A stretch of DNA of 64,000 nucleotides, from NCBI GenBank assembly GCA_964016885.1, contig OZ024744.1:89466001-89530000 (forward strand), written 5' to 3'. This document shows, one piece after another, positions 3,089 through 28,926 of this stretch. How positions within the stretch are numbered: position 1 is the stretch's first letter; every line of letters starts with the position of its first letter. Source of the DNA: Eledone cirrhosa (taxonomy: Eukaryota). The notes under the pieces are model-generated. The model searched no databases, was not told where the DNA came from, and was given only the letters and a program-made list of their open reading frames with translations. Position numbers and translations under genes: made by a program.

Positions 3089-6000
3089 TCAGGATTTGGG
3101 CACCATGGCCCATTCGAGAAGAGAATTACTGTTTGCGGAGACATATCCGGGTGTGGGTGGTTTGTCCGGGATTACTTGGAGGAATTTGTCCAAAGACTTC
3201 TTGAATCTTGTGTGGTCAGTTTCTGTTTTGACGTGTCCTGGTGTGATGTTGAAGAGAGCAGGGCCGATTGAGGTGAAATAATTGTGCCGTATTGTTGTTA
3301 TGAGTTGCGATTTAGATTTTTGAATGGGACGGATAGCACGGGGCCCAAGCCTTGGGTGTATCTTGAAGGCGATGCCAACATCATTTGGGCAGTGATGATG
3401 GAACATTTTCCACATCATGCAGATAATATAACGCTCACGGCGACGTTGGAGTGAGTAAAGTTTCAGGTTTTCCAATCGACCCCAGTAGTCAAGGTCTGAC
3501 ATGCCATCTATCTTTTTCGTGATTGCCCTTTGAGGAGCTTCAAGTTTCATGATACTTTGTTTCGTGTGGGGAGACCACAGTGGACAACAGTATTCAAGGT
3601 GTGGTCGGGCGAAAGTAGAGAAGAGAAGGATAATGGTGCGGGAATCTCTCGACTGGAAGGTTCTGAGGATCCAGGAACACATTCTGCGGGCCATGTCAAC
3701 TTTGCTGCTTATATGCGTGGTCCAGCTTATGTTGCTGTCCACGGTTACTCCCAAGTCTCTGATGTTGTTAGATGCCACGAGAGTTTCCCCGGAGGGAAGG
3801 GAGTACGGGAGTTTCAGAGCATCCTCTTTTCCAAAGTGGATCAGTTCGAATTTGTCTTCGTTCAGTAACATGTTGTTCTTTTCTGCCCATTGGGTAACAG
3901 CCAGTAGGTCTGACTGAAGGCTTATCCGGTCATCCACGCCATTGATGACCTTTTGGAGCTTGGAATCATCAGCGAAAATTTTAATGTTGCTGTGTTTGAT
4001 GATGTCAGTGATGTCATTAATATAGATGATGAAGAGAAGTGGGCCCAACACAGTGCCTTGTGGGACTCCACTACTGACTTTGGCTGGGCTTGATTTGACT
4101 CCCTCAACTACAACATGTTGGGTTCTGTTTGACAGGAAGCTCTTGATCCACTGCAGCAGCTTTCCAGTGACACCAATATTGGACAGCTTTCTCAGTAGAA
4201 TGTTATGATCAACCCTGTCAAAGGCCTTGCTGAAATCAAGGTAGATAACATCAGTGTTGGAACCCTCTCCCAAGGCTCTCAAAATGTCATCAAAGTGATG
4301 CAGTAGTTGCGTCAGGCAATCCCTTCCATTACGGAATCCATGCTGGTTGGAGTTCAGCATATTGTTACTCTCAAGGAAGTGGGTCATTCGCGATCTCACC
4401 ACTCGCTCAAATACCTTAATGATATGAGAGGTGAGTGAGATTGGACGGTAATTCACGGCAAGGGATTTGTTTCCCTTTTTGAAAACTGGGACAACAGACT
4501 GGGATAGAAGGTTTTCTGGCACATATCCAGCATCCAGTGAGTTCCGCCACAGATTGGCAAGAGGAGAAGCAAGTTGGTGTTGACACGCCTTCAAGACACA
4601 AGCAGGGAACCTATCGGGACCTACTGCTGAATTATGTTTGATTTCCTTTATTGCCGCCAAGACATCAGGGGCGCCAAACGTTATGTCCGATAAGGTGTAA
4701 TGGGGAGTAACATCGCCGATACAGCCCAGATCGGCCATATCAGGATTGCTGAAAACAGAGCAGTATTGTTTCTGCAGTATCTCACCCATGGTTTTAGCAT
4801 TGTCTTGAAGAGTGCCATTTTCATCAATTAGAGGGCCAACAGTAGAGCCAGTGATTTTGTGTTTTTTTGCAAATGAAAAGAACACTTTGGGATTGAGTTT
4901 GATCTTCTCAATGGCCCAGGCCTCTTCAGCTCTTCTCTGATTGTTGATGAGGGACATTATGTTGTTTTGGAGGTTATGTTTTTTAATCTCTAGTGATGAA
5001 ATGGCAGTCAAGTTGATGTGTTGCTGCTGACAGTATTTCAGCTTGTTGATTTTTTTGTTCGTTCTCTTAATTTTTCTGATGAGTGTTTTTCTATTTCTAG
5101 GGATTCTGCTCTTAGATTTGTTTATAGTTCTTAATGGGGTGTGTTTAGCACATATGTTTGTAACAGTGTCCACAAAAGTCTGCCAGGACTTTTTGATGTT
5201 AGTGGGTGTATGAGTGTGCGTGAAGGACCAGTCGACATGTGCAAGATCATGACTGATCGCTTCCCAGTTTGCATTGTGGAAATCCATAGCGTCAAACGGA
5301 TGGACAGGAGAAATGACATTGGGTTTGTATATTGGACGGTGGAATCTCAGATCACAGAGAACCATGTCATGATCAGAGAGTAGAGTTTTCTCCACTGCAA
5401 TATTGTGGATATTGTCAGTGTGATTGCTGAAAATTAAGTCTAGGACGTTTTTGTGGCACCTCGTTGGTTCGAGCACTAGTTGGGATAGGAAGAAATCATC
5501 CATGAAGTCAAGAAGCGATTCCACAGCTTCCCTGTCAGAGGTTGAGGCAGAAGAACCTGGTGGCAGGGTGTTTGTGGACCAGTCAACTCCGGGGAGGTTG
5601 AAGTCCCCCATCATTAAGATGTTGTCAGGGTGACACTCTTGGATGAAACACTTTATGCTGTTGAGGCATTCCTTGAAGCATGGTACAGGCGTTTGGGGTG
5701 GCCTATAGAGCCCAACTACTAATAGGTTGTTGGTTTGACTGAATACAGTGACTGCCTCACAGTATCCATTAGTGAATATGTTCATAGCCTCTGTTGAGAA
5801 AGAATTATGGACATAAATGGCAGTTCCGCCCTTTCTTCTGCCAGCGCGATCAGCACGGATGGCTTTGAAATTTTTCACTTTCACCTCGGCTTCCAAGTGG
5901 AGGTTACTGAGATGGGTTTCAGTGAGGACGAAGAAAGGGATGTGGTTTGGATGGACATCAATCCAGTCCTCCAGGAATTTGATCTTCCATTTTTGAGTAT

Positions 6001-6109
6001 TGGTGGAAGGGCTGATGCCTTGGGCGTTAAGCAAAAATGTAGAGGCGAGAGTGGATGGTTTTAATTGTTTTGGTGTGTTGTTAATTTGTTTGTTTGTTAA
6101 TGGCAGCAA
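3089..6109 (-). CDS. LINE ORF2: AP endonuclease plus reverse transcriptase, uninterrupted 1006 aa
   Basis: APE motifs LTETHL, YRPP, GDFN, LDLIF, SDH; RT motifs NYRPISLTS, YLDFSKAFDRVDH, GVPQGTVLGPLLF, FADD; CR1-like C-terminus L.LYSLQRRRER. Track start is TTG. Confidence 0.95.
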   Translation of the reverse strand: MLPLTNKQINNTPKQLKPSTLASTFLLNAQGISPSTNTQKWKIKFLEDWIDVHPNHIPFFVLTETHLSNLHLEAEVKVKNFKAIRADRAGRRKGGTAIYVHNSFSTEAMNIFTNGYCEAVTVFSQTNNLLVVGLYRPPQTPVPCFKECLNSIKCFIQECHPDNILMMGDFNLPGVDWSTNTLPPGSSASTSDREAVESLLDFMDDFFLSQLVLEPTRCHKNVLDLIFSNHTDNIHNIAVEKTLLSDHDMVLCDLRFHRPIYKPNVISPVHPFDAMDFHNANWEAISHDLAHVDWSFTHTHTPTNIKKSWQTFVDTVTNICAKHTPLRTINKSKSRIPRNRKTLIRKIKRTNKKINKLKYCQQQHINLTAISSLEIKKHNLQNNIMSLINNQRRAEEAWAIEKIKLNPKVFFSFAKKHKITGSTVGPLIDENGTLQDNAKTMGEILQKQYCSVFSNPDMADLGCIGDVTPHYTLSDITFGAPDVLAAIKEIKHNSAVGPDRFPACVLKACQHQLASPLANLWRNSLDAGYVPENLLSQSVVPVFKKGNKSLAVNYRPISLTSHIIKVFERVVRSRMTHFLESNNMLNSNQHGFRNGRDCLTQLLHHFDDILRALGEGSNTDVIYLDFSKAFDRVDHNILLRKLSNIGVTGKLLQWIKSFLSNRTQHVVVEGVKSSPAKVSSGVPQGTVLGPLLFIIYINDITDIIKHSNIKIFADDSKLQKVINGVDDRISLQSDLLAVTQWAEKNNMLLNEDKFELIHFGKEDALKLPYSLPSGETLVASNNIRDLGVTVDSNISWTTHISSKVDMARRMCSWILRTFQSRDSRTIILLFSTFARPHLEYCCPLWSPHTKQSIMKLEAPQRAITKKIDGMSDLDYWGRLENLKLYSLQRRRERYIICMMWKMFHHHCPNDVGIAFKIHPRLGPRAIRPIQKSKSQLITTIRHNYFTSIGPALFNITPGHVKTETDHTRFKKSLDKFLQVIPDKPPTPGYVSANSNSLLEWAMVPKS

Positions 6110-7062
6110 TGGGAGTTTGTGCAGTGGGGTGATAGTGGAGGGTGGTGCTGGGTGATAGCTCGAATGTTTTTTTCCAGTTCTTTTGCCAGATTCATTATGG
6201 CTAAAAAAGAGGAAGAAGTTTCCTGTTTAGAAGACTGTTGGTGACTGTGGTAGTGGTTATTTTTATGTAGGTTATGGTTTTTGTTTTTGCTTTTATTTTT
6301 AATTTTATTTTCATTTATCCGACGGGTCCCCGGGAGATGGGTAAAGGGACAATCCCGGTCTAAACACAATCTGTCTCGCAGGGAAAAACGGCAGATTTGT
6401 GGATTCCTTGTTTGAGTTATTGGTGGTTGTGTTGGTGTTAAATTAGAGTATGTATTATGGTGGTGGCTGTTTGTGGGGATAGATCGTTTTGTCCTAGGTA
6501 AATGGGTGAATTTGCAGCCACTATCCGTACATATTCTATAGCGTAGAGAGTAGCGGCAAATGATGGGGTTTCGAGTGGGTGGGTATGTGGGTGTGGGTGT
6601 TGTGAGAGGTGTAGATGATGGTTTGGGTAGGATTTGATGACCTTTGTGGACTGTGGGAGGGAGAGTTCTTGTTCTGGTATTAGAAGGTAAATTCCTTGAC
6701 ATAGCAGTAGACAAAAATGTTGTAGTAGTAGTAGTAGTAGTAGGCAGAGATGTTGGCAGTGGTGATGATTGGACTGCTGGGCCAGAGAAAGGATGTGGCG
6801 TTTCATGCTGTGAGACAGAGGCTACTGGGGGGTCAATAGTTTCATTTAGTAGATCGGCCATTGTTGATGAATCAAGGAGTGGTTCACACTGTTGTTGTCG
6901 TTGTTGTTGTTGTTGTTGCTGTTGTTGTTGTTGTAGCTGTTGTTGTTGTTGTTGTTGTTGCTGTTGTAGCTGCTGTTGTTGTTGTTGCTGTTGTAGCTGC
7001 TGTTGTTGTTGTTGCTGCTGCTGGACAGCATTCAAAGAGAAAACACACCGTAGTTTATCCAA
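6097..7062 (-). CDS. LINE ORF1, 3' part: poly-Q, Pro/Thr-rich linker, two CCCH zinc fingers
   Basis: CRYSLRYRICTDSGCKFTH and CRFSLRDRLCLDRDCPFTH (C-x8-C-x4-C-x3-H); directly upstream of ORF2; true start lies in or beyond the gap. Confidence 0.7.
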   Translation of the reverse strand: MDKLRCVFSLNAVQQQQQQQQQLQQQQQQQQLQQQQQQQQQQLQQQQQQQQQQQRQQQCEPLLDSSTMADLLNETIDPPVASVSQHETPHPFSGPAVQSSPLPTSLPTTTTTTTTFLSTAMSRNLPSNTRTRTLPPTVHKGHQILPKPSSTPLTTPTPTYPPTRNPIICRYSLRYRICTDSGCKFTHLPRTKRSIPTNSHHHNTYSNLTPTQPPITQTRNPQICRFSLRDRLCLDRDCPFTHLPGTRRINENKIKNKSKNKNHNLHKNNHYHSHQQSSKQETSSSFLAIMNLAKELEKNIRAITQHHPPLSPHCTNSHCCH

Positions 7063-10816: not shown

Positions 10817-11125
10817 TGTGGGTGCGGAGGCTAGAGACAACAATTTGGACATGATACACTAACAAAGGCCGGCACTTTTCCATGTTCTTAGTTTCTCTTA
10901 GTCGCCGTTGCTGCCAACCCTGAACAAATATAATATCTTTAAGACATTATCCTCCTTCTGTCCTTCTGTATATATTATATCTCCAAGATCCTGATCGGAA
11001 ATTGTCTCTTGCAAGTCGTTAATCACCAACGATTAAGCCAGCAGACACACAATTGATTGGAACATCACACACGTTGACGATACAAATACAAAAGCAAACA
11101 TACAAGCATACACAGGCATACACAA

Positions 11126-11157
<32 letters not shown>

Positions 11158-11518
11158 ATGCACATACACACACACACACACACATACGCGCGCGCACATA
11201 CACACACGCACACACCCACACAGACAGACACATGCACATACACGTACGAACACGCACGAACACTCACATACATGCGCGCGCACACACACACACACACACA
11301 TACATACAAGCGCACGCGCGCACACACACACACACACACACGTGCACAAACGTAGAGGTATACATTTATACACACTCATACATATACGCGCATGCACACA
11401 CACTCACTAACACACACACACTTACACTTATATAGTGCATGTGCGTATATATATATACATATATATCTTTGTGTGTGTTTGTGTGTGTGTATACGAACAT
11501 ATATATATAATGTATATG

Positions 11519-11567
<49 letters not shown>
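10430..11567. repeat. Microsatellites (GTT)n, (GGT)n, (CTT)n, (GA)n, (GAAA)n, (CA)n, (TA)n
   Basis: Directly visible. Confidence 0.95.
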
Positions 11568-11569
<2 letters not shown>

Positions 11570-11919
11570 CAGGAGGTTGGACTGGTGTAAATCCTTGAAA
11601 GGTTTATTATACTATGATCATTTCAATGACCGGGTTCCATATGGATCCGGTGATATCATCAGGTATTCGAAATATAACAAAGGAATATATAATTATATTT
11701 CGAATACCTGATGATATCACCGGATTCATATGGAACCCGGTCATTGAAATGATCATAGTATAATAAACTTTTCAAGGATTTACACCAGTCCAGCCTCCTG
11801 TTATTTTATTTATAATAATTAACTCCGTATTAGCACCACCAACTACACAAACGAAGACGGGTGAACTGCACTACGTTGAGTACTCTCCATAATATTACAT
11901 CCAGATTGACCATACACAA
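11566..11919 (+). mobile_element. PLE pLTR fold-back 1: inverted arms 11566-11677 and 11693-11804, hammerhead on both strands
   Basis: Plus-strand motif 11704-11761: ATAC-CTGATGA-[stem II ACCGG..CCGGT, imperfect base]-GAA-ATGATCAT-A-GTAT; mirror copy on the left arm. Confidence 0.75.
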
Positions 11920-12845
11920 TTCTTCACTTAAAGAAGGAGAAGCAGCCTCATCTGTCGGTGAATAATCATCGTCAGGCGTGTGGGGTAGGGGTATGTTATG
12001 CGGTGGTAATGTTTCGGTGTGTGTGTTTGTGGTAGTGTTTGATGGAGTGGGATGGGATGGGGCTGTGTTCTTCAGGGGTGTTGTCTGTGTTTCTTCTGTT
12101 GTTGTTGGTTGAGTGGCTGTTTGTTTTGGTGTGTTTGCTCGTTTCGTCTGTTGTTGTACTTGTGGTGGTGGATGTTTTGGTGTTGGTGTTGGTAATAGTG
12201 TTGTTTTAATGATGTTGTTGTGGTGTGTTTGTGAATGACAGGAGACCTTTAGGTGTGTTGTGCTACCACAGCGAAAGCAATGAGGTTTACGCCCCTCCAC
12301 CAAAATGTTTATTTTGTTGTTGTCGTCGATGACGACTCTTTCGGGTATTTTGGAGATTCTCTCTGGCCTCATCTGTATCAGAATCCCCAAATCAGTACCC
12401 GCCCACCTTTGTCTAATAGACTTCCGTATCGAAAGAATAGCATCAGTCTCTGGCTCCACGAAGTCAGCCAAGATCCACCAGATGTTAATGTTTGGTGGTA
12501 TATTTTTTATTTTTATTTTTGTGTCCTTTTTCCCATGTACGTAGGGAAAAAGGTGAATGCTTTTGAGACCATTGGTGTCACAGAATGTTTTGGGGCGCGT
12601 GCCTCGCTTTTAAACAGTACGGAAATACTTCCGTACTGTCTTCCTCGTTGAAGAAAGTCAATATTTTCTAGAGTCTCCTTCAAGGTGGCTTCTATGTCTC
12701 CTTGACTCACAAATATTGGCTTTCTTGTTGTGTTTGAGACAGTCCTGAAGGTCACTGTCCTTCGAACCGTCTCTTCCTTTATTTCGAAGGGTGAGTTGAT
12801 TCTAAACCCACCCTTATCTTCGAAAGTTACAAATGTTCTCCCTTT
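11920..12845 (-). pseudogene. Tx1 copy A: internal ORF1 fragment of the same family as copy D
   Basis: Frameshifted ORF1 (TFRTVSN, PTYMGKRTQK, CFRCGSTTHLKVSC knuckle) closely similar to 26677..28272. Confidence 0.85.
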
Positions 12846-15800
12846 CGATGGTCGGCCCTATCGAATGCCTTTGACTGATCCAAATTTATCAGTGCCCCAC
12901 CGAAGCCGAGTTCACACCCCACCCTCTCTGCGATATATTGCATGAGGTGGAGGTTGTCGTGTATGGACCTGGTCGGGATTGCGAATGTCTGCGCTTCTCC
13001 ACCAGGTTTTCAACGACAAGCAGCAGCCTCTTTGCTAACACCTTGGCCAAAATCTGTGTTTAGCAGAGTTATGGGCCTGAAGTTATCTATGTCGTCCCCC
13101 TTGTTCTCGTCCTTCCTGACCAGCGTGACTACGCCCTTGGTCACAGAACTGGGAATTCTCCCGTTCTGCTGCCAGTTGCTGTAGACCGCTTCGGGGAAAC
13201 CGGAGAACAAGTCCGGCATTGCAACGTAAAATTCGTAGGGTAGACAGTCGAGACCTGGAGATTTGCGTTTTCCGCATTGGCTCAGCCCGTCCCCCATCTC
13301 AGCGGCCGAAATCGGCCTTTCGCAGAAATTCGCCTCCCCGTCCGAGAGTCGCGGCAGGCCGTCGAGGTATGGACTGAAATCCATAGCCCCTCCCGGCGCT
13401 CCACACTGCCCGAACAGTTGTGCAAAGTGCCGCTGGAAGGCCGCGCACATCTGCTTCGGTTCAAGTATCACGCGTCCGCCTTGGTCCTTCAAAGACCGAA
13501 TCGTGGACTTGTTGCCACTTTTTCCCTCCGTCACTCGGGCCCAGCTAACAGCTTTGGCTCCCTCGTTTCTCAGAGCACGTGTTTTACTCCTGACAACGCA
13601 GCCCTCGTGCTTTGCGTCGAAGAACTGGTCTAGGGCCGTTCTTGTCGCTAGCACGTTAGCTACGCTGCCACTCCTAATCGCCTCTTCTACTTTATCTACC
13701 AGTTCCTTTTCAGTCTTATTCCTATCTAACGCTAGTTCTCTAGTAAAGCCTATCAATTCTAATCTAATTACTCTCTTAAGAGAGCACCACCACCTGTTGT
13801 TGACAATTGCACCCGTCAAGTGCTGCTTAACTAAAGTGCTAATCTGACTACTGTATGCTTTACGTGTCGGTAACGACAGGTTCAGCTTCCAGTAGTCGGG
13901 TCCCTGCCTATGAGTTCTATCAAGGTTGACTACGCAGGTCACTAGTTTGTGATCTGAATAGGCAACCATGAACATGTGTGGACAACTTTATATGTCCCTA
14001 TCTCTATCTCTCATTAGAAACCTATCTAAGTACGATCTAGATGTCCCGCTACGGTTCGTCCACGTCCACAGTGGCGCAGTCGGGAAATCTAGTCGGTATA
14101 TATCGGCCATTTGAAATCGGCCGATTAAATATTTGAGACTGTTACACCCCCCTCTATCGGGGCATGCTCCCACATAATCCCAACGTGCATCTAGGATTCC
14201 ATTCCAGTCACCCACTAAAAGCAAGGAGCGGGACGTTTTCCGGATGGGGCATATACGGCCACCAGTCTGAAGGCTCCACCTTCACTACTGCTGACGTGTA
14301 GGACCACCAGTCGACCCTCCGGGTCCAGATGTACCGTCTGTGTCACGAGGTCCAGGTGTTTCCGCAGCAAAACAGCAACCCCGCCCCCACCTCTCAGCTG
14401 ACAGAGGGATACGTAGATCTCAAAGTCGTCGAAAATGGGGGCCAGCTGTCGCTCGCTGTGGATCCTGGACTCGCAAATGACTACCACATCCATAGGGTGC
14501 GACCTGAGATCGTTTAAGTGTTTATCCTGTTTCCCGGGCATCCCCAGGCCGCGCACATTCACACATCCGACTTTTATATTGGCCATGTTGGTGAGGAAGA
14601 GTTAGAAAAGAAGAGAAGAGAATTCACTTACCTCCTCGCTTCCTGAAGACCAGGCTGCACAATGTCCATGGGGGTGTTGGGGGGTTGTTTGGTAGGATGG
14701 TGGTTTCTGGCGGGGTCGGGACGGAGATGTTGGTGGAGAGGGTGTCTCGTGGGGTGGGGGTGTCTGGGGTGATGGTGGGGAAACATTTTAAAAGGACGCG
14801 GTTAATGGGTTTAACGCAAGGATTACCCACGTCCTTAGAAAAGTTTTTTCTTTAAAGATTTATAGGTGTCCGAGTGACCCTAATCATCTTTAAATTGGGT
14901 CTGTGTACACAGTTCGAAAAAGTTTTCCCTTCGGTTTTCACTGAAGGGTCGTTGGAGATGACCTCAATTAAAGTTTTGTTTTAGCTGTTTATGTATGTGT
15001 AATGTTCTTGTTGTGTTGTGTTGATTTTTGTATGTTGTTCTTGTGTGTGTTTTCGTTTTGTTGTAGGTGTTTGTGTTTGGAGTGTTGTTGTTGTTTTGTT
15101 TTCAAGAGAGAGGGTTGTTTGTAATGTTTGTGTTGTTTGTGTTGGTGGTTGTGTGTTTGTTGCCTTTTGTTCTTGTTATGTCTTTTTTTTTCTTTTGGAG
15201 CGGAGGGGTTCTCCCTCATCACTGAGTGATTATGAGGGGGGGGTCTCGTCCGTTGTGGTGTCTGTGTGATTGGAAATGGGTACGTTTTGGTGAGCGATTT
15301 TTTTTAGTTGTTTTAGGTGGGGAGGGGTGGGTTGAACTGTACTTGCAGTTTGGTTGTTTTGGTTATTTTTGTGTGTTGTTGTTGTTGTGGTGGTGGTGGT
15401 GGTGGTGGTGGTGGTGGTGGTGGTGGTGGTGGTGGTGGTGGTGGTGGTGGTGGTGGTGGTTGTGTTGCTGTCTTAGGTGTTGGCAGTAGTGCCTTTTCTT
15501 TTAAAACAGTTAGCTGAGGACAGGAAGCCGTCAGGTGACCACTGCTTAATCAGTGGTAACATGATGGCCGCCTACCCTCAACAGAAATGTTTATGTGAGA
15601 ATTTCCGTCTAGAGGCACACGTTGTGGTATTCTAGCTATCCGTTCTGGTCTCATTTGGACCAGAACTTCTAAGCTTGTACCGTTAAATATACCCCTGGAG
15701 GACTTTCTTACCGAAATCACTGAGTCTTCATCAAAATTGATGAAACCAGCTAATATCCACCAGATGTTTACATTTGGTGTGATATTTGTTATTTTTATTT

Positions 15801-16721
15801 TTTGCGTCCTTTTTCCCATATATGTGGGGGAAAAGGTGTAGAGAGTTGACACAATTGGTGACACAGAATATTTCTGTGCTGTCAATTGGTCTTTCATTAT
15901 TACCGATAAATTCCCGAAGAGTTTTCCCTTCTGTATGAAGGTAATAACATTCATGGAGTTTCTTAGAACCAGCTCAGTTTCATTTTGCGTTAATTGAGCT
16001 GGTTTTCTGGTGGTGTTTGAGATTGTCCTGAAAAATACAGTTTTTCAACGCAATTCTTGGGGAGAAGTGATGCTAAAAGCGCCATTCTGCCCCAAAGTTA
16101 CGTACTGCTTGGCATCTCTTAGTAGTTCTCTAGCATTAGAGATGTGAATTTGTTTATACAGTTCTGTCTTTTGGACAGTTTGTGCGAACGAAATTGTTTC
16201 TTTTTTTTTTTAGTTATTTTTGTTGGTGTTGTTGTCATCATTGTTGCTGTTGTTGGTGTTGGTGTTGTTGTCATCATTGTTGCTGTTGTTGTTGTTGCTG
16301 GTGCCGTTGGTTGTGTTGTTTTTGTTCATTGTTTCACACTTTTGTTTTTGATTTGTTGCCATGGCAACGTCAAGTTGTTGGTCAGCAAGTGAACAAAATC
16401 CTTCCTCTGGCTGACGTTTGTCTGAGACATCTGCTACTATGAGAGAGGAAAGGGGAAGCTGTAAGCATATCTTCCCCTTTCCTCCTTCGAATGTTGGTGA
16501 AGAAGCTTCAGCCATTTTTTTTTATGTTATCTTTTCCAAAAAAACTTTTTGTGAACTATTTCGCCTAAAGGCGTAGAATATTTTGAGAGACTGACCAGAT
16601 CAAAATATGACCGGGCAGTCCCTCTACAAATTGGTATAAAATTGAAGGTTTACAGTTAGGAATTTCTATAGAAATTTAGGCAGAACATACCCAGCAAATT
16701 TCACGCGTGTGTTCATCCCAA

Positions 16722-16723
<2 letters not shown>
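12846..16723 (-). mobile_element. Tx1 copy B: 5'-complete, decayed; ORF2 deleted downstream of the KAFDR motif
   Basis: ORF1 pieces 14.6-16.5 kb; ORF2 pieces 14215..14586, 13988..14224 and 13010..13975 (NVRGL, GDWN, YLDRF, SDH, NFRPITLLN) ending at GALINLDQSKAFDRADHR, fused to copy A. Confidence 0.9.

Positions 16724-16783
<60 letters not shown>
16724..16783. repeat. (GATA)n tract between Tx1 copies B and C
   Basis: About 15 units. Confidence 0.98.
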
Positions 16784-16997
16784 TTCTTTATTTACCATAA
16801 AGGCATAAAAAGAAGGGACAAATACAAAGGGGGAGTTTACATATAATCGAGTAAAAAGGGTGTAACATGAAAATAATCGAAAATAACCTCAAAAGGGAGG
16901 GGACGTGATGGGGGTTGCACACACCCCCGAAAAAGTGTGCAATCCTTTGCCCGGGGAGCACATGGAGAAGGTGCTCCCCTCTCCTTCACTTCTTTAC

Positions 16998-19900
16998 CTA
17001 CAGGATGATATACAGAGAAGGCCCATTTACACGAGCCATTCTCGCCACTATCACCCACCTTTCATAAAACTGCCTGTGGCCAAGCACCTCTCTCTCCATT
17101 CTTATCCTTCTTCCGAAGTGATATCGGAAGAAGTAGACCAGACTATGGCCAGAGAGGAAGTTGCCTGACCTCAGACCTTTCAATCGTGTCCACCAAACAA
17201 CCTCTTTCAACATGGCTATTACGCACAGAAAAACCGCCTTTGCTTCCTTTGTGAAGAGGGGAGGCGGTTTGATTGTCATCACGGACTCGGCGGTCAATTT
17301 AATCGGCGCCACCCGCGACAGCAGTTGTTCGGCGTAGCCCCACAGATCAGCCACGCCCGGACATTGCACCAATGCGTGCGCCACGGTTTCTTCGTGACGC
17401 ACGCATCTAGGGCAAATCTTTTTTGAGGGATCCCTGCCCGGGCGCCCGTGTCTGTAGAGCCTCTCTCGAACGGGTAGAGCCCCTCGGTAGCACTGCCAGG
17501 CCAGTGACTTCTGGAAGTTGTCCATTGGTCCTGGGCCGAAAGTCCTACCGAACAGGCTGGCCAGTTCGTCTTCTTCCATGTCCAGCGACTCTCCAAGGGT
17601 GTCATCGCCCCTGCTAGCCACCAGCCCTCTATAGAATGATGAGGTGGATTCTCCACCGATGGCCCGGCCCGCTTGCCAGAGAGCCCTGAGCGCCTGAGCA
17701 CACTCAGTGTGCCAGTCTCCCAGTTTTCCGGATCTTTGCTTGACCCAGGACTGTAGCTCGGTGAGTGAGACGAGTCTCGGAAAGGCTCGTTTCACGAACG
17801 GAGCCCACACCGGTTGACCAGTGAGGAATACCTGTAGGTGCCGTAGCCTTAATGCGTGCCTACGCATCATCAACCACGGCATCCCCAGCCCTCCTTTCGA
17901 AGGTTGTTGGCAGCAGATGGATCTTCTCACCATAGGAGGACGCTTCTTCCAAAGAAATTGGAAGAGCATGCGTTCCATGGTGGTGAGTGTTTCCTTAGGG
18001 CAAGGCACGACAGTCAGGCGGTAGTAAGTGACGGACGCTATGTAAATGTTCGCCACCTCCGCCCGGCCTTTTAGGGACAGCTTACACTTGGCCCATTTCT
18101 GGGTTAGTGCAAACACCTTGTTCGTAACCTCGTTCCAGTTCTTTTCCACCTGGAGGTCCGGTCCAAACCAGACCCCAAGCAACTTTACCGGGCCCTCCGT
18201 CCAGTGTCCGACGACACCGTCAGGAGGCATCGGTTTGCCTCTCCACGTTCCGAGTTGCAGCCCGATGGATTTTTCCCGGTTCAGTTTCGCTCCTGACAAC
18301 CTTTCGTACTCCTCCAGTAAGGTACCGATCGCCTCGATCTCCGAGTCGGTTGATACCATTACTGTTACGTCATCGGCGTAGGCCGACACCGCTTTGCTCA
18401 ATCCTGGTTCCAGGGGGATACCCTGCAACAACTCCAACTTCCTCAGTAAAGGCTCGAGAGTCAATACGTACAGAAGAGAGGAGAGAGGGCACCCCTGTCG
18501 AATGGATCGTGTGATTTCGAACGGCTTCGAAAGGTAGCCGTTCACCTTGATCCTAGAACAGATGTGGTTGCTATGTAGGGCAGTGATCCAGCCTCTGAAA
18601 ACAGGACCGAACCCAGCCGCCGCTAGCACCGCATCCAGGTAACCATGGTCGACCCTATCGAAGGCCTTAGACTGATCCAAGTTGATCAGGGCCCCACCGA
18701 AGCCGGGTTTGTTGCCAACCCTCTCTATGATGTATCGCATGAGGTGGAGGTTATCGTGAATGGACCTGGATGGGATAGCACATGTCTGCGCATCTCCCAC
18801 CAGGCCACCCACGACAAGCGCCAACCTCTTTGCTAACACCTTGGCCAAAATCTTTAACTCTGTGTTTAGCAGGGTTATGGGCCGGAAATTATTTATACTA
18901 TCCCCCTTGTTCTCGTCCTTCCTCACCAGCGTGACTACGCCCTTGGCTACAGAACAAGGAATTCTCCCGTTCTGCTGCCAATTGCAGTAGACCGCTTCGA
19001 GGAGTTCGGAGAAGAAGACCGGCATTGCTAAATAAAGTTCGTAAGGTATACCATCGAGACCTGGAGATTTGCGTCTGCTGCATTGGCTCAGCGCATCTCC
19101 GATCTCATCAGCCGAGATTGGTCCCTCGCAGGACTCTGCCTCTTTGTTCGAGAGACGCGGCAGGCCGTCGAGGTATGGACCGAAATCCACGCCCCGGCCC
19201 GGACCCTCGCCTCCCCCGAACAATCGGGCAAAGTGCTTTTGAAAGGCCTCGCACATCTGCTTAGGCTCCCGGATCACTCGTCCATCTTCGTCTTGCAACG
19301 ACCGGATGGTGGATCGATTTCCACTTTTAGCTTCTGTCACGCGGGCCCATCCAACGGCTTTGGCCCCCTCATTACCTAGAGCACGTATTTTACTTCGAAT
19401 GACGCAGCCTTCATGCTTTGCATCGAAAAACTGGTTCAAGGCCGTCCTCGATGCCAGCACTCTGGCCACATCTTCGCTCTTGATTGCCTCTTCTAATTTA
19501 CCTGTTAATTCTTTCTCGTTTCTATTCCTATTGGCAGCTAACATCTTGCTATAACTTATTGATTCTGTTCTAATCTCTCTTTTGAGAGATGCCCACCATC
19601 GGTTGTTGACGATTGCACCCGTCAACCTCTCCTTAACTAATCTGCTAATCCGGTTTCTGTAAGTCTCTTTTGCCGGTAAAGACAAATTAAGTTTCCAGTA
19701 ACCGGGACCCTGTCTATGTGTTTTCTCGAGATTGACCACGCAGGTCACTAATTTGTGATCCGTGTAGCCAACCGTGCGCATTTCTGGACAGCTTAATATG
19801 TCCCTATCCTTACTTCTAACTAAGAATCTATCTAAGTACGATCTAGATTGACCACTGTGGTTTCTCCAAGTCCAGGTAGGCACAGTTGGAAAATCTAGTC

Positions 19901-20435
19901 GATATCTATCGACCAAGTTAAAACGGTCGAGTAACCCCTTGAGGCTGTTACACCCCCCTCTATTAGGACATGCTCCTGCATAGTCCCAACGTGCATCCAG
20001 GATGTCATTCCAATCCCCCGCTAGAAGCAGGGAACGCGACGTTCCCAGAAAAGTCTCCAAACGCTGGAAGAAGTCGGGCCGTTCAGCTCCGAAAGGGGAG
20101 TAGACGGCGACCAGTCTCAAGGCCGCACTTTCACTACTGCCAACGTCTAGCACCAACAAACGACCCTCCGGGTCCGAGTGCACAACCTGTACGGCAAGAC
20201 CCAGGTGTTTTTGCAGCAGCACGACAACCCCACCCCCACCTCCAGGTTGACAGAGAGATGCATGCACTTCAAAGTCATCGAAGGTGGGGGCCAGCTGCCG
20301 CATGACGCTGATTCGAGTCTCACAGATAACCATTACATTTATACTACATGACCTGAGGTCATTTAGAAGCTTTGCTTGCTTCCAAGTTGAGCCCAGGCCA
20401 CGTGCATTCAAACATCCTACTCTTAACACATCCAT
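16998..20435 (-). CDS. Tx1/L1-clade ORF2: APE, RT and C-terminal CCHC, 1145 aa
   Basis: LNARGL, ICETR, GDWN, YLDRF, TDH, GPGYWKLN, NFRPITLLN, LDQSKAFDRVDH, IRQGCPLS, YADD, CPRC-x8-H-x4-C. Confidence 0.96.
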   Translation of the reverse strand: MDVLRVGCLNARGLGSTWKQAKLLNDLRSCSINVMVICETRISVMRQLAPTFDDFEVHASLCQPGGGGGVVVLLQKHLGLAVQVVHSDPEGRLLVLDVGSSESAALRLVAVYSPFGAERPDFFQRLETFLGTSRSLLLAGDWNDILDARWDYAGACPNRGGCNSLKGLLDRFNLVDRYRLDFPTVPTWTWRNHSGQSRSYLDRFLVRSKDRDILSCPEMRTVGYTDHKLVTCVVNLEKTHRQGPGYWKLNLSLPAKETYRNRISRLVKERLTGAIVNNRWWASLKREIRTESISYSKMLAANRNRNEKELTGKLEEAIKSEDVARVLASRTALNQFFDAKHEGCVIRSKIRALGNEGAKAVGWARVTEAKSGNRSTIRSLQDEDGRVIREPKQMCEAFQKHFARLFGGGEGPGRGVDFGPYLDGLPRLSNKEAESCEGPISADEIGDALSQCSRRKSPGLDGIPYELYLAMPVFFSELLEAVYCNWQQNGRIPCSVAKGVVTLVRKDENKGDSINNFRPITLLNTELKILAKVLAKRLALVVGGLVGDAQTCAIPSRSIHDNLHLMRYIIERVGNKPGFGGALINLDQSKAFDRVDHGYLDAVLAAAGFGPVFRGWITALHSNHICSRIKVNGYLSKPFEITRSIRQGCPLSSLLYVLTLEPLLRKLELLQGIPLEPGLSKAVSAYADDVTVMVSTDSEIEAIGTLLEEYERLSGAKLNREKSIGLQLGTWRGKPMPPDGVVGHWTEGPVKLLGVWFGPDLQVEKNWNEVTNKVFALTQKWAKCKLSLKGRAEVANIYIASVTYYRLTVVPCPKETLTTMERMLFQFLWKKRPPMVRRSICCQQPSKGGLGMPWLMMRRHALRLRHLQVFLTGQPVWAPFVKRAFPRLVSLTELQSWVKQRSGKLGDWHTECAQALRALWQAGRAIGGESTSSFYRGLVASRGDDTLGESLDMEEDELASLFGRTFGPGPMDNFQKSLAWQCYRGALPVRERLYRHGRPGRDPSKKICPRCVRHEETVAHALVQCPGVADLWGYAEQLLSRVAPIKLTAESVMTIKPPPLFTKEAKAVFLCVIAMLKEVVWWTRLKGLRSGNFLSGHSLVYFFRYHFGRRIRMEREVLGHRQFYERWVIVARMARVNGPSLYIIL

Positions 20436-20468
20436 GTGGGCGGCAGAGCCAAAGGAGAGTGTAGAGAC

Positions 20469-22350
20469 CTACCTTTCCGCTTCCCGGGGTTCGGGTTGCA
20501 CGACTTCCATGGGGTCGGGGGTGTTGGGTGAAGGGGTGTCTTGTGGTGGTGTGGGGTCGTCGGTGTGTGGTGGGGTTGGGGTGTTTGGAGTTGTGTTGGG
20601 GAGGGGAAGGGGAGGGGGAAAGCTTTTTAGTAGGACGCGGTTTATGGGTTTGACAGAGGGTGGTCCTACGTCCTCCTTAAAATCCTTTTTTAGTTTTTGG
20701 TAGAGGTTCATTGGGATTTTTATTAGTTTTAAATGTGGGTGGTTTTCTGATGAAACAAAGTTTACACCTTCGGTTTGTACCGAAGGATTATTGTATATGA
20801 GTTCATTTAATTTATTATTGTTTCTGTTGATGTAAGTATAGTGTAATGTCTTTTTTTCCGATGGTGTGAGTGTTTCGAAGAGGGGAGGGGCAGGTTTGGT
20901 TTTGTTTGTTGCTGGAGGGGTGTTTTCTGTTTTGTTAGATTGTGTTGCGATTTGGGTGGGGGTTGTTTGTCCTTGTGTGTTTTGCACATGTTTTCTTTTT
21001 TTTCCTTTTAATCTGTCTGAAGGACTCCGTTTCTTCCTCCGAATTCGTTGGGTTATCTTCAGTGTTGGAGGGAAGAGGTATGTTTGCTGGTAATGTTTCC
21101 GTGTTGGATTTCTTTGTGGGGGAGATGGATGTCACTATGTTAGACTGTGTTGTGTGTTGTGTCTGCGGTGGTTGTGTTGTTTTATTGAGTGAGAGGTTGG
21201 GTGGGCCTGTATTTTGTTTTGGGGTAATGTGTTGTGACTGTTTGTGTTGTGGTGGTGTTGTGGTGTTACTGAGGGACGGGTTGGGTGGGACTGAGTTTTG
21301 TTGTTTGTTTATCTGTTGTGGTGGTGGTGGTGGAGCTGGTGTTGGTAGCAGAGTTTTCTTTTTGTTGAGTTGTGGACAAGCGGCCTTCAGGTGCCCTCTG
21401 CCTGCACAGATATGGCAGGACGGCCTTCTCCCCTCCACGCTAATGTTTATATACCCGTGGTCCTCTAATAGGATTCTGTCGGGTATTTGGGCGATGCGTT
21501 CAGGCTTCATTTGTACTACCAGCTCTATACCTGTTCCACTGAACGCATTGCCTGTGGTTTTCCCAATGGAAATCACGTTGTCATTCACTGGATCGATGAA
21601 GCCAGCTATGAGCCAGCAGTAGTCCACATCTGGCATCATTGCATCCAGCCATATGCGTTGAGTTTTTTTTCCCATATAAGATGGATAAAAGGTGAAATTT
21701 TTCGAACGAATCGGTGACAAAGCACATTTTTTTGCCGCCGATTCGTTCTTCATGATAATTGCTAGGCTTCCATACAGTCTGTCTTTTCTTATGAAAGTTG
21801 TTTCATTCAGTACTTCTGCGAGTACTGTTTTGATATCTGCTTGAGAAGGCTGTTCAGGTTTTTTTGTACTGTTGTTGATGGTCCGAAACTTGACCGTTCG
21901 GCTTTCAATGTCTTTCGTGAATTCTTGAGGCATTTTTACCAATAAAATACCATTCTCACCTTCACTTATGTATTGTTTTGCGTCCGTGATCCTTCGTACC
22001 ACATCTGAAATGTTTTCCGCTATATAAGTCAAAGATTTCTTTGTTTTCTGTGCAAAAGAAATCTTGTCGTCTGCTTTGTTTTCTGATATGATGTTATTTT
22101 CAACTGTTATTTTTTTGTTTGTTGTGTCTTTGTTTGTGTTATTAGTATTGTCATGCAATTTTTCAAATTTTTTTTTTTCGTTGTTTTCGTCATTTAATTT
22201 TTTTTCCTCCGCAGATTCGTCCGTTTTTATTTTCATTTTTCCTTCCTTCTCTATGACGTTAGTTGGGAAGGAAGGGAGGACTAAAGCGTGCGAGCTTACA
22301 ACTCTTACCGCTGTCCCCCCACCACTATTTTCGTTCGCTGCGTTTAACAT
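20469..22350 (-). CDS. Tx1 ORF1 (gag-like, CCHC knuckle), split by a one-base slip in an A8 run near 21000
   Basis: 20935..22350 (CHICAGRGHLKAAC) plus 20469..20987, whose VKPINRVLLKxFP motif is shared with copies B and D. Confidence 0.85.
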
Positions 22351-22583
22351 TTCTGTTAGACGATTGAAATTTTTTACACAAAATTTTTTAAAACAGGTTT
22401 TTCACCTCTATGAGGGGTAAAGATGAGCTAACCCACCGCCTGACAGTTCAGACGGAGGGTCAAGCTACACAATTGTATCAAAATTAAGTTTGAACTCACA
22501 AAATTTCCTCAATAAATTTGAACAAAACTTCTGTGCGAAGTGAATGACATCCACACTGTAGAACAGACGACAGCTAGATTATA

Positions 22584-22605
22584 TAGATAGATAGATAGAT
22601 AGATG

Positions 22606-22692
<87 letters not shown>
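22584..22692. repeat. (GATA)n tract between Tx1 copies C and D
   Basis: About 27 units. Confidence 0.98.
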
Positions 22693-25600
22693 TTCTTTAT
22701 TATCCACAAGGGCGCAACAAGAAAAGGGGACAATACAAAGACATGCCGGGGATTTTACATACAGTCGTGTAAAAAATATAAAAACAAACAATTACAACAA
22801 TCGAAATCCCCAATAGGGGGGAGGCGCCACAAATGGGTTGTTTAATACCCCGTCGATAGAACAACCCTCAACTCCAGGAGCGTGTTGTGCAAGTGCTCCT
22901 TTCTTCCTTTTGCTCACTTCCTCAACCTACAGGCTTATAAAAAGAGAAGGCCCAATCACTCGGGCCATTTTTGCTTCATTCACCCACCTTTCAGTAAATT
23001 TACTGGGGTGCAGTGCCTCTCTCTCCAACCTGATTCTCCTTCTAAAGTGATACTTAAAGAAGGGAATCAATTGTTGTCCGGAGAGAAAGGCATCTGTCTT
23101 CAGTCCTCTCAACCTCGTCCACCATATAACTTCTTTCACCATAGCCACCGTACAGAGGAAAACCGCCTCTCTTTCGTTTTTGAAAGAGGCTGGCGGTTTG
23201 ATCCTTACTATGGACTCGGCAGTCAACTGAATTTGTCCCATACGCGACAGCAGTTGTTCTGCATAGTTCCACAGGTCAGTTACGCCCGGGCAGTGTACAA
23301 TTGCATGCAGGAGGTTTCAATGTCCTGCCCGCATCTTGGACACGTCCTATTGGAAGGATCCCTGCCGGGGCGTCCGTGCCTGTAGATCTTGTCACGAACC
23401 GGTAGAGCTCCTCGGTAGCACTGCCAGGCCAGGGACCTCTGGAAGTTGTCCATAGATCCCGGGCGGAAAGTCCTACCAAATAGACTGGTGAGCTCATCGT
23501 CTTCGACGCCCAGAGTCTCTCCGAGCACGTCGTCGCCCTTGTAACGTACAATCCCTCTATAGAATGTCGAAGTGGAGTCGCCACTGATTGCTGCGCCCAC
23601 TTGCCAGAAGACTGTGAGCGCCTGAGCGCATTCAATGTGCCAGGCGCCCATCGTTTTCGGTCTTTTCTTGACCCAGGACTGCAGCTCCGCCAGCGAGACG
23701 AGCTGTGGGAAAGCCTGTCTCACAAACGGTGCCCACACCGGTTGGGGGTCGGTGAGGAATACCTGGAGATGCCGCAGCCTCAGCGCATGTTTGCGCATCA
23801 TCAGCCACGGCATTCCCAGCTCTCCGTTTGAAGAGTGCTGACAGCAGACGGATCTCCTCACCAGCGGAGCCTGCTTCTTCCACAGAAACTGGAAGAGCAT
23901 GCGTTCCATGTTGGCGAGGTGTTGACGGGGACAAGGCACGACAGTCGAGCGGTAGTAGATGACGGACTCTATGAAAGTGTTCGCCACCTCCGCTCGTCCT
24001 TTCAAGGACAGTTTGCACTCTGCCCACTTCTGGGTGAGTGCAAACATCTTGGCCGTGACCTCGTTCCAGTTTTTCTCCACCTGGAGGTCTGGACCGAACC
24101 AGACCCCGAGCAATTTCACCGGTCCGTCCGTCCAGCGTCCAACGACGCTGTCGGACGTCATCTGTTTGCCTCTCCACGTACCGAGTTGCAAACCGACAGA
24201 CTTGTCCGGGTTTAGTTTTGCTCCCGTCAGCGTTTCGTATTCTTTCAGTCAGTTGCCGATCACCCCGATTTCCCAGGTGCTCGACACCATTACTGTCACG
24301 TCGTCGGCATTAGCCGACGCCGCTTTGCACAGTCCCGGTTCTAGAGGGATTACCTGCAACAGCTCCAATTTCCGCAGTAGTGGCTCTACAGTCAATACAT
24401 ACAGAATGGAGGAGAGAGGGCACCCCTGTCGAATGGAATGCGTGATTGCGAACGGCTCCGATAGGTAGCCGTTCACTTTGACCCTCGAGCAGATGCTGGT
24501 GTGCATCGCCTCGATCCATCCTCTGAACACGGGACTGAAACCGGCCGCCTTGAGAACCGCTTCCAAGTATCGATGGTCGTCCCTATCGAATGCCTTAGAC
24601 TGATCCAAGTTGATCAGAGCCCCCACCTCTCTATGATGTATCGCATGAGGTGGAGGTTGTCGTGTATGGACCTGGTCGGGATTGCACACGTTTGCGCTTT
24701 CCCTACCAGGTTCTCAACGACAAGCGCAAACCTCGTCGCTAGCACCTTGGCCAAAATCTGGCCAAACTCTGTGTTGAGCAGAGTTATGGGCCTGAAGTTG
24801 TTATTCCGTCCCCCTTGTTCTCGTCTTTCCTGATCAGCGTTACTACGCCCTTGCCTGCAGAACTAGGAATTATCCCGTTCTGCTGCCAATTGCAGTAGAC
24901 GGCTTCGAGGGCGCCAGAGAACAAGTCCGTCATGCCTATGTAAAACTCGTAGGGTAGACCATCTAGACCGGGTGACTTGCGTTTCCCGCAGCGGCCCAGA
25001 GCGTCCCGTATCTCAGCGTCCGTGATCGGTCTTTCGCCGAACTCGGCGTCCGTGTTCGAGAGACGCGGCAGGCCGTCGAGGTATGAACTAAAGTCCATTT
25101 CCCCGTTCGGCTCACCGTCGTTCTGCTCAAACAGACGCGCAAAGAGCCACTGAAAGGCCGCGCACATTTGCTTGGGGTCAAGTAGCACGCGTCCGTTTTG
25201 GTCTTTCAAAGACCGAATCGTGGACTTGTTGCCACTTTTTGCCTCCGCCACTCGGGCTCAGCTGACAGCTTTCGCTCCTTCGTTTCCTAGAGCACGTGTT
25301 TTGCTTCTGACCACGCAGCCTTCGTGGTTCGCATCGAAGAACTGGTCCAGTGCCGTTCTCGACGCTAACACTCTAGCCGCGTTTCCACATCTAAGTGCCT
25401 CCTCTACCTTGGCTATTAGTTCTCATTCTATTCTGTTTTTCTCTAAGGCTAACTCTCTGCTATACCCTATCGATTCTATTCTAATTGCTTTCTTGAGAGA
25501 GTACCACCATCTATTGTTGACGATGGCTCCCGTTAACTGTTGCTTGACTAGTCTACTTATCCGTTCACTGTAAGCTTTACGTGCCAGCAACGACACGTTC

Positions 25601-28483
25601 AGCTTCCAGTATCCGGGACCCTGTCTATGTATTCTATCACGGTTGACTAAGCAGACGACTAACTTGTGATCTGAATAGGCAACCATGTGCATTCGTGGAC
25701 AGCTTAACATCTCCTTGTCCCTTTCTCTGATGAAGAACCTATCTAAATACGATCTAGATGTCCCACTGCGGTTTGCCCACGTCCACTGTGGTGCAGTTGG
25801 GAAATCCAGTCGATACCTATCGGCCAGTTGGAATTGGCCGATTAAAGTTTTGAGGCTGTTGCACCCCGCTCTACTGGGACATGCTCCCACATAGTCCCAT
25901 CGTGCATCTAGGATACCATTCCAGTCCCCCACTAAAAGTAAAGAGCGAGACGTTCCCAGAAAAGATTTTAGACGCTTAAAGAAGTCTGACCGTGATTGCG
26001 ATTGCCCAGTCGAGGCATAAACGTCCACCAGTCTGAAGGCTCCACCTCCAATACTGTTCACGTCTAGGACTACCAGTCTACCCTCCGGGTCCAAGTTTAC
26101 TTGCTGTACTTCGACGTCCAGGTTCTTCCGAAACATGACAGCCACTCCACCTCCACCTCCTGGCTGACAGAGAGATGCGTAGATCTCAAAGTCGTCGAAG
26201 ATGGGGGTTAGTTGCTGCCTGTTGTGGATCCTGGACTCGGTGATGGCTATCACATCCATACTGTGTGACCTAAGGTCGTTTAAAAGTTGGCCCTGTTTCC
26301 AGGGCATCCCTAGGCCACGCACATTCACAGTTCCAACTCGTAAACTAGCCATGTTGGTGACGAAAGGTGCACTTACCTTTTCGTTTCCTAGAGATCGGGT
26401 TGTTCAATCTCCATTTGGGTGCTGGATGGGGTGTTGGGTGGGGTGGGGAAGCATTTTAACAGGACGCGGTTGATGGGTTTGTGGCAGGGGTTGCCCACGT
26501 TCTGTGAAAATTTATTTTTTAGGTCATTATAGGTTTCCATAGAAACCCTTATAAGTTTAAGGTGTGGAGACGATTCTGCCTTGACGAAAGTTTTGCCCTC
26601 CATCTCCACCTTGGGGTTTTGGGAGATGACCTCCATCAAACTCTTGTTGTTTGTGTTGATGTATGCGTATTGTTGTTTACGTTTTTTGTTGTGTTGTTTT
26701 AGTTTGTTGTTCGTCCGGGAGTTTTCTTTTTATGGTGGGTGTTTGTGTTTGGGGTGGTGTTGGTGCTGGTTTTGCTGATAGGGGGATGTTTGACTGTGGT
26801 GTTGTTTGTGTTGTTTGTGTCTGTGGTTGTGTGTTGGTGTTGGTGATTGGAGTTTTGGGTGTTTTGAGGTGTCTCTTTTTTTGTTTTTTAGATTTCCGCG
26901 GTTCTCCCTCTTCTTCACTTAAAGAAAGAGAAGCAGCTTCATCCGTCCATGAAGAATCATCGTCAGGTGTGTGGGGTAGAGGTATGTTGTGTGGTGGTGG
27001 TGTTTCGGTGTGTGTGTTTGTGGTAGTGTTTGATGGAATGGGATGGAGTGGGGCTGTGTTCTTCAGGGGTGTTGTCTCCGTTTTTTCTGTTGTTGTTGGT
27101 TGAGTGTCTGTTTGTTTTGGTGTGGTTGCTCGTTTCGTCTGTCGTTGTACTTGTGGTGGTTGTTTTGGTGTTGGTGTTGGTAGTAATGTTTTTTTAATGA
27201 TGTTGTTGTTGTGTGTTTGTGGACAAGAGGCTTTTAGGTGTGCTGTGCTACCACAGCGAAAGCAATGAAATTTTCGTCCTTCTACCGAAATGTTTATTTT
27301 GTTGTTATTAACGACTCTTTCGGGTATTTTGGAGATTCTCTCCGGTTTCATTTGCAACAGAATCTCCAAATCTGTACCCGCCCACCTTTGTCGAATAGAT
27401 TTTCGTATCGAAAGAATCATATCAGTTTCTTGCTCTACGAAGCCAGCCAAGATCCACCAGATGTTAATGTTTGGAGGTATGTTTTTTATTTTTATTTTCT
27501 GTGTCCTTTTTCCCATGTATGTAGGGAAAAAGGTGTATGCTTTTGACACCATTGGTGTCACAGAATGTTTTTGTGTGAGTGCCTCGCTTTTAAACAGTAC
27601 GGAAACACTTCCGTACTGTTTTCCTCGCTGGAGAAAATTGACATTTGCTAGAATTTCCTTGAAAGTATCTTCTATATCTGCTTGGTTAACAAATGTCGGC
27701 TTTCTTGGGGAATTTGACACAGTCCTAAAGGTGACTGATCTGCTAATTGTGTCTTCCTTTATTTCAAGGGGTGAGTTAATTCTAAACCCACCTCTTTCTT
27801 CGAAAGTTACAAATTTTCTCCCTTGCTGGAGCATATCTCTTGCGTTGGAGATATCAAGATTTATAAAATCTTGTTTTTTGTTCACTGTTTCAGCGAAAGA
27901 CATTTTCTTTTTTTTGTGTAGTGTTGCTGTTGTTGTTGTTGTTATCGTTGTTAGCCTCGGTGTTGGAAATCTCAGTTCCTTGTCGAGGTGAAACATTATG
28001 TGTAGATGTATCTGTAGAGTTGTTGATGTCTTTTTCATGTGTATGTATGTTAATGGGTTTAATTCCTGTGTTTTCCTGTGTGTTATTGTTATTTTTCTCC
28101 ACTTTGACGGTAGAAATTTTAAAATCTTCAAGTGGTAATACTTTTTTTTTTCTTTGTTGACAGTCGTATCTATGGCGACGTCCATAGTAGCAGAAGCAGA
28201 TATAACGTTAATATCTGCCTCTTTCTCTCTCTTTTCTCTATTAACGTTCTCCAGTGTTCTTGTGTTGCTCAAGTTATTTAGTTTGTAAAATCTGATATTT
28301 TAAAACAAATTTTTAAAATAAAATGTTCGCCCCTGCAGGGGCGAAAAATGGGATTACCACCCAGCTGACAATTCGGCTTGGGGGTTGATCTACAAAATGC
28401 TGTTTTTTCAAACAATTAGTTCGTTTTTTTTTTTGTATAGAAATTAACAAAAAAGCTTACCGGCGATGTTCCACGCGTCAGAC
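22693..28483 (-). mobile_element. Tx1 copy D: full-length, multiply disrupted
   Basis: ORF1 26677..28272 plus 26388..26639; ORF2 pieces 25423..26352, 24784..25251, 24249..24689, 23280..24191 and 22927..23241; AATAAAGAAA(TCTA)n end. Confidence 0.93.
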
Positions 28484-28495
28484 AGAAAGAGAGAG

Positions 28496-28599
<104 letters not shown>

Positions 28600-28880: not shown

Positions 28881-28923
<43 letters not shown>

Positions 28924-28926
28924 TAT

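Follow-up and report, generated by a model that had tools for sequence, protein, structure and literature searches.

A segment of 67 to 71 nt lies close to the 5′ end of three neighboring non-LTR retrotransposons in a 64,000-nt window of the Eledone cirrhosa genome (contig OZ024744.1), which is the whole stretch of DNA analysed here. It is real sequence, and these elements probably have a working splice donor at its start, its 3′ end and its excision being putative. We lean towards reading it as a 5′-proximal spliceosomal intron that is partly used and is retained in the genomic copies of a group of Tx1-type LINEs (the families of elements B and D). Use of the exact acceptor named in an initial annotation of this DNA has a little less than an even chance. 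That annotation also held that an intron surviving in a retrotransposed copy implies unspliced RNA as the template, an argument that presupposes splicing of the segment. LINEs are regarded as intronless because they are copied through RNA, and intron retention has so far been described as a peculiarity of Penelope-like elements (PMC8557442; here and below, citations refer to the available parts of each paper).

Tandem elements and their classification

Elements B to F form a head-to-tail run of non-LTR retrotransposons on the minus strand, between 11.9 and 30.4 kb of the window, with (GATA)n arrays between the copies. The members are E (5′-truncated), F (a short 3′ fragment), D, C, and B. Element C (16783..22585, minus strand) is full length, with an intact ORF2 and an ORF1 that contains a CCHC knuckle and is split by one frameshift. 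Element D (22692..28496, minus strand) is full length with degraded ORFs. Element B (12845..16724, minus strand) is a degraded copy with stops and frameshifts; it breaks off inside ORF2, at 12845, and so does not reach the ORF2-end acceptor described below. Joined to the cut end of B is a D-like piece of ORF1 (11920-12844, minus strand), 87% identical to 26911-27824. Elements E, F, D, and C, as well as B at its 5′ end, border on (GATA)n arrays, of which this single locus has five. The arrays lie at 16724..16783 (between C and B), 22583-22692, 28480-28599, 28881-28923, and 30380-30406, and the repeat is the presumed insertion target.

The intact ORF2 of element C (16998..20435, minus strand) encodes 1145 aa with APE endonuclease, reverse transcriptase (RT), and zf-RVT domains. 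A Pfam search identified PF03372 and PF00078, with PF13966 slightly below its cut-off (26.9 vs 27.5 bits). The best match among solved structures is L1 ORF2p (E = 1.5e-50), and the nearest named relative is a protein of Argonauta hians (63%). The ORF1 translation has, by reading, a CCHC knuckle of the form C-x2-C-x4-H-x4-C; it has no Pfam match, and a homologue search returned nothing at E ≤ 0.001 among 5779 candidates. Judged by an ORF2 with APE, RT, and zinc-binding domains and by a separate CCHC ORF1, these elements are L1/Tx1-type non-LTR retrotransposons. They are labelled Tx1 on account of their domains, their microsatellite target, and the initial annotation, as the tree was built without named Tx1 references. 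Membership among Penelope-like elements was ruled out by the APE endonuclease and the two ORFs, leaving a likeness that is analogous in design only. A search of viral contigs gave 84 pattern matches with no relative of these elements among them, and an Rfam search over 11000-31000 gave 18 matches, all below the gathering score, with none on the 5′ UTRs and no ribozyme.

Candidate splice signals at the 5′ ends and at the ORF ends

In element B, the candidate 5′ UTR intron (16624..16690, minus strand) is 67 nt long, with a GG|GTATGT donor and TTTGTAG as the proximal acceptor. It follows a putative first exon of 34 nt (16691..16724, minus strand) that adjoins the GATA array. The homologous segment of element D (28390..28460, minus strand) is 71 nt long, reads CG|GTAAGC..TTTTGTAG, and is purine-rich before the AG. 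That of element C (22465..22531, minus strand) has 67 nt, begins CA|GAAGT, and ends in TGTGTAG. On re-reading the sequence, the positions, lengths, and motifs that the initial annotation gave for all three segments were correct, including the missing T in C, which has no GT at the 5′ end of its segment; a GTGAGT lies inside it, starting at 22499. The GTATGT of B matches the donor consensus at 5 of 6 intronic positions, and that of D is GTAAGC. The segments had been placed about 25 to 45 nt from each 5′ end, and this agrees with B (34 nt) and D (36 nt) but not with C (54 nt), as measured from the set ends of the GATA arrays. All three segments are AT-rich, with a GC content of 0.23-0.28 vs 0.45-0.57 in the following 60 nt.

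TGTAG at the 3′ end is invariant across B, C, and D. To this extent the acceptor does persist, as had been claimed, but it is not unique, since each copy has a second YAG at 126, 124, and 128 nt from the donor (B, C, and D; the AG ends at 16565, 22408, and 28333). Pyrimidines fill 10, 9, and 6 of the 17 positions before the proximal AG, which is TAG in all three copies, and 10, 14, and 14 of 17 before the second; element D has an additional CAG at −12. The branch-like motif, said to persist as well, does not: the candidates are CCTAAC at −37 in B, CTTAAT at −24 in C, and ACTAAT at −31 in D, three different motifs in different alignment columns.

Contigs from four of five sequence runs of unrecorded kind, which come from two studies, were placed on element C only (16786-22582). 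Among the 15 of 227 joints listed on C, none falls at either candidate intron, and among the 12 of 50 indels listed, none lies at 22530 and none restores the GT of C. One contig of run X5 covers 22291-22552 with three gaps, and run X2 gives zero cover of C across 22412-22582.

We scanned genome contigs for relatives and obtained 46 loci, 40 of them from one assembly (G001), of which 37 stretches were fetched (687 kb including overlaps). G001 contains eukaryote-type tandem arrays with 84 ORF2 matches. Its ORF2s are ~40% identical to that of C, and a tree made by a quick method places the window clade and the G001 families together, with a long branch between them and the relatives at 25-30%. 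The flanking DNA of the G001 copies has only microsatellite-like and ORF2 matches in common with the window. Contigs C3-C19 of this assembly (L056-L093, L097, and L101-L138) contain long head-to-tail arrays of intact Tx1-like elements. The assembly is titled a bacterial MAG yet holds eukaryote-type DNA, that is, mis-binned host DNA.

GTAAG(T/A) occurs within 170 nt after 55 of the 64 element 3′ ends in G001; of the other nine, seven are, by reading, ends of arrays or junctions with internal sequence, and two are cut by contig ends. The same donor is found upstream of all 51 ORF1 starts that have 420 nt of upstream sequence. It spans two dissimilar 5′ UTR types, though the ORF2s are 92-98% identical: AAAA|GTAAGT in 39 copies of the first type and GTAAGA in 16 of the second. 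Two copies have an identical truncation point, so some copies arose by DNA duplication and not by independent retrotransposition. As G001 is a recent radiation with some such duplicates, its donors count as a few lineages and not as 55 cases.

The acceptor side in G001 is less uniform. Second-type copies have TTTTYAG|GG 175-197 nt downstream of the donor (16/16). In the first type, an AG is found at +63 to +66 in 25 of the 39 copies, near the lengths seen in the window; these proximal AGs are mostly weak AAG (19 of 25, the other six being TAG). Fourteen of the 39 lack any AG before +104, and 19 have a distal CCTAG at +220 to +263. The distal TAG swaps with TGG in a hairpin arm, where pairing alone accounts for the swap. 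Precisely spliced genomic copies, which the initial annotation had suggested looking for, gave no match with five junction patterns in the 687 kb of G001; a sixth, looser pattern gave four matches, all in unrelated DNA.

The main alternative, which we consider unlikely while still giving it real weight, is that the donor is genuine but serves mainly as a landing site for U1 snRNP or as a promoter element, the AG being incidental and the 67-71 nt rarely or never excised. Its roles would then lie in elongation, in protection from early termination, and in read-through past the upstream polyadenylation signal in arrays. A donor that is invariant in G001 while the acceptors vary fits this explanation, as do the unaligned branch motifs of B, C, and D and the position of the array donor, 50-129 nt downstream of the AATAAA of the preceding copy. 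There are also precedents: the human L1 donor is kept within a RUNX3 site (PMC5860796), U1 stops premature termination of unspliced EVD RNA (PMC5580714), and Restrictor is blocked by a 5′ splice site (PMC12211998). An incidental AG is harder to reconcile with the textbook pyrimidine-rich acceptor in every second-type copy, with the invariance of TGTAG in B, C, and D, and with the presence of a proximal or distal AG candidate in all 39 first-type copies.

A second strong donor is found at the end of ORF1. AG|GTAAGT in B (14626..14631, minus strand) and AG|GTAGGT in C (20467..20472, minus strand) overlap the ORF1 stop codon, and D has AG|GTAAGT at its ORF1 end (26371..26376, minus strand). The ORF2 stop TAG of C (16998) is at the same time a potential acceptor, CTGTAG|G, preceded by a run rich in pyrimidines. 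Elements D (22927) and E (29188) and the fragment F (28821) end in this motif as well. By reading, splicing the ORF1-end donor of C to this acceptor would keep the Arg-stop ending of ORF1. In G001, AG|GTAAGT is present at 63 of 64 ORF1 ends, as in B and D. A further donor lies ~15 nt past the ORF2 stop (62/62 sites), with 55 pyrimidine-rich acceptors ~250 nt beyond it. The ORF2-spanning donor and acceptor on which the initial annotation leaned are also conserved, and so many well-placed splice signals in one lineage raise the odds that the 5′ signal is real. The G001 3′ UTR contains a second intron-like segment of ~250 nt (e.g. L061:8477-8726), and the C13 family of this assembly has one too.

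Chance, shared descent and RNA structure

We compared the best donor-like 9-mer of each UTR with 1000 dinucleotide shuffles. Single donors in the window were not above the shuffles, of which 25% (B), 23% (C), and 18% (D) scored as high, and in B the top-scoring 9-mer is a site other than the donor of the segment. The first-type AAAA|GTAAGT donors of G001 beat their shuffles in the six UTRs tested (1.2-4.3%); the second-type GTAAGA donors alone did not (75-80%, five UTRs tested). We also scored a full pattern, namely a donor matching at least 5/6 positions in the first 60 nt with a pyrimidine-rich YAG 60-75 nt on, against 3000 shuffles. It occurred in 2.7% of B shuffles and 1.5% of D shuffles, figures that flatter the pattern because it was defined after the sequences had been seen. 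Element C itself lacks the full pattern, which is present in 9.5% of its shuffles.

The initial annotation described most other sequence as different between the copies. The segment interiors are, in fact, 61-66% identical in pairwise comparisons (53-56% in shuffles), which is equal to or above the compared flanks (56-69% for exon 1 and 48-58% for the next 69 nt). The persisting length is confirmed at 67, 67, and 71 nt, but since the interiors are homologous, it is partly a matter of common descent.

Hairpins follow the proximal acceptor in each copy, in a region that includes the second candidate acceptor (16565..16623 in B, 22408..22464 in C, and 28333..28389 in D, all minus strand). Over the slightly longer stretches 16520-16623, 22355-22464, and 28285-28389 (minus strand), two or three hairpins form a conserved structure. 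Among the three sequences, 7 of 18 stem pairs show two-sided changes; these 18 include the lowest pair of the first stem, to which the G of the proximal AG belongs. Stems resembling these are also present in G001 UTRs. At 22430 in C, the common family letter converts a G-U pair of the first stem to G-C (45741 of 45773 in depth, run X1), which is in line with selection on the first hairpin. A general structural occlusion of the donor was rejected, as it is seen neither in B, C, or D nor in any of the five first-type G001 families tested. Four of the five second-type families have the whole donor paired within a hairpin (P = 1.00, a value reached in 0 of 100 shuffles).

More distant relatives set a boundary to the feature. 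The C13 family of G001, 48% identical to the other families there, lacks the 5′ donor, in the three UTRs read, as well as the one at the ORF1 end, and keeps only the donor/acceptor pair of the 3′ UTR. In the 22 relatives at 25-31% identity, AG|GT is absent from the ORF1 stop throughout, and a strong donor-like site immediately precedes ORF1 in two; many of these UTRs are incomplete. By this comparison of sequences, the 5′ donor is a property of the window/G001 lineage and not of all such elements. In one of the contigs examined (L094, ~3040-3330), a sequence that we take to resemble a U1 snRNA gene stands directly upstream of a Tx1-like element and is followed by a short piece resembling the start of a histone gene; L001 has a piece similar to that of L094 at its 5′ end (1-150).

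Chance, descent, and structure together bear on a second alternative, in which the segment has no splice function and is a homologous AT-rich UTR linker whose GT and AG are kept by descent and by RNA hairpins. The missing GT of C, the non-significant donor scores of single window UTRs, the homologous interiors, the donorless C13 family, and the two-sided changes in stems that include the acceptor G would all be expected of such a linker. We nevertheless find it improbable, for GTAAG recurs at a similar position in a lineage 40% identical in ORF2, and does so in two UTR types unlike each other; the donor is unpaired or weakly paired in most of those UTRs, and in both lineages the ORF1 stop is marked by strong donors. 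A role in trans-splicing, or in read-in from a host or element promoter further upstream, would need the acceptor alone and so would explain why C keeps TGTAG, as B and D do, behind an AT-rich stretch and without a GT, but it is very improbable given that the constant feature in G001 is the donor.

Proposed use of splicing, precedents and significance

Against a retained intron stand the missing GT of C, the unaligned branch motifs, the variable first-type acceptors of G001, and the donorless C13 family. The retained intron remains the reading we prefer, given a layout that is shared by the window and G001: GTAAG or GTATG ~35-130 nt beyond the repeat or polyadenylation signal that lies upstream, a stretch rich in T and A, at least one AG candidate, hairpins, and ORF1, and then another strong donor where ORF1 stops and an acceptor that coincides with the ORF2 stop or follows it. 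An internal Pol II promoter would produce a full-length RNA, whose 5′ donor would be recognised by U1 in support of transcription, export, and translation. Part of this RNA may be spliced, with either the proximal AG (67-71 nt) or the distal AG (124-128 nt) as acceptor, and in a further fraction, ORF2 may be removed as well, giving an ORF1-only mRNA. That the two introns are removed jointly, as the initial annotation supposed, is a tentative suggestion on the doubtful side. Only unspliced RNA would rebuild a complete, promoter-bearing copy, and the intron would therefore persist. Element C may have lost its donor or may use the GTGAGT at 22499 instead, and B would be a dead copy still showing the design of its family. 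It is possible, although we would not expect it, that the whole lineage (to 40% ORF2 identity) is built around host splicing, with a retained 5′ UTR intron, an ORF2-wide intron from the ORF1-stop donor, some 3′ UTR introns, and unspliced RNA as the genome.

The closest known parallel in design is Penelope of Drosophila virilis, whose 75-bp intron begins 46 bp from the start site and lies within the promoter region; this intron is conserved (67% identity), and reporter expression depends on it (PMC2377424). Intron retention has been called highly unusual among retroelements and is known in Penelope-like elements such as Chlamys-3_cRei (PMC8557442). As is proposed here for the window elements, Penelope has a short 5′-proximal intron in its genomic copies; a tandem arrangement is common to both, and splice sites are conserved between diverged elements (PMC2377424; PMC8557442). 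Penelope-like elements differ in having a GIY-YIG nuclease and pseudo-LTRs, where the window elements have an APE endonuclease, an L1-type RT, and two ORFs. Splicing of Penelope has been shown experimentally, whereas the window introns are candidates read from the sequence.

Human L1 is likewise an L1-type element with a donor near its 5′ end. That donor (G98U99) is seldom used, with occlusion by structure suggested as a cause; splicing reduces promoter activity, and the presence of the donor has been explained by overlap with a RUNX3 site (PMC5860796). Spliced copies of human L1 (SpIREs) make up ~2% of full-length genomic copies (PMC5860796). In the elements described here, unlike human L1, the donor recurs across dissimilar UTRs, another donor accompanies it where ORF1 stops, and spliced genomic copies were not found in the sequence examined.

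For the ORF2-spanning intron, the models are LTR elements. The Ty1/Copia element EVD makes a spliced mRNA for the structural protein only (shGAG), and its unspliced RNA is the genome (PMC5580714); BARE has a spliced gag RNA (PMC3520747). Besides being LTR elements, they differ in the placement of the EVD intron, which is not in the 5′ UTR but internal, and in its coupling to premature termination.

TART is a telomeric element of another clade. This Drosophila non-LTR element forms tandem arrays and has transcripts that are spliced, as proposed here, but its introns are in antisense transcripts (PMC1636488). Insertion into microsatellites is known for the Tx1 families Kibi, (TC)n; Koshi, (TTC)n; and crocodilian Tx1, (TTCC/TTTC)n (PMC4494074); the window elements share this habit and differ in the unit, (GATA)n. 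No report of introns in Tx1 elements was found in the openly available literature covered. The available part of PMC4494074 describes no intron for microsatellite-targeting Tx1 families, that of PMC13282606 does not mention introns or splicing for L1-Tx1 elements, and those of PMC9341512 and PMC12477816 contain no description of Tx1 introns.

If both the retained intron and the ORF2-spanning one are real, the strategy of two RNA pools known from retroviruses and Copia would extend to target-primed LINEs. The ratio of ORF1p to ORF2p would be set by splicing, as Copia does for Gag, offering a route to an excess of ORF1 protein. Introns can shield retro-copies from silencing, and a 5′ intron could let a retro-copy pass for an intron-containing gene. 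If only the donor matters, this would still be a mobile element that uses U1 recognition for gene-like transcription. A published table gives 13 L1-Tx1 families with recent activity in Octopus vulgaris (PMC13282606), which would therefore be a system in which the retained-intron reading can be tested.

Several other features of the window were recorded. An intact endonuclease-RT frame of 1045 aa lies within 3089-6226 (minus strand). Other retrotransposons, ending in (AAT)n, occupy 33533-39839 (plus strand) and include a duplicated 3′ part of 1.1 kb (35737-36857 vs 36909-38036, 97%). Long, near-perfect inverted repeats at 30720-30960, 32400-32700, and 11580-11780 are fold-back or MITE-like and are the source of weak matches to miRNA families. 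Finally, a 79-bp tandem repeat at 47943-49181 has 15.4 copies with 93% matches.
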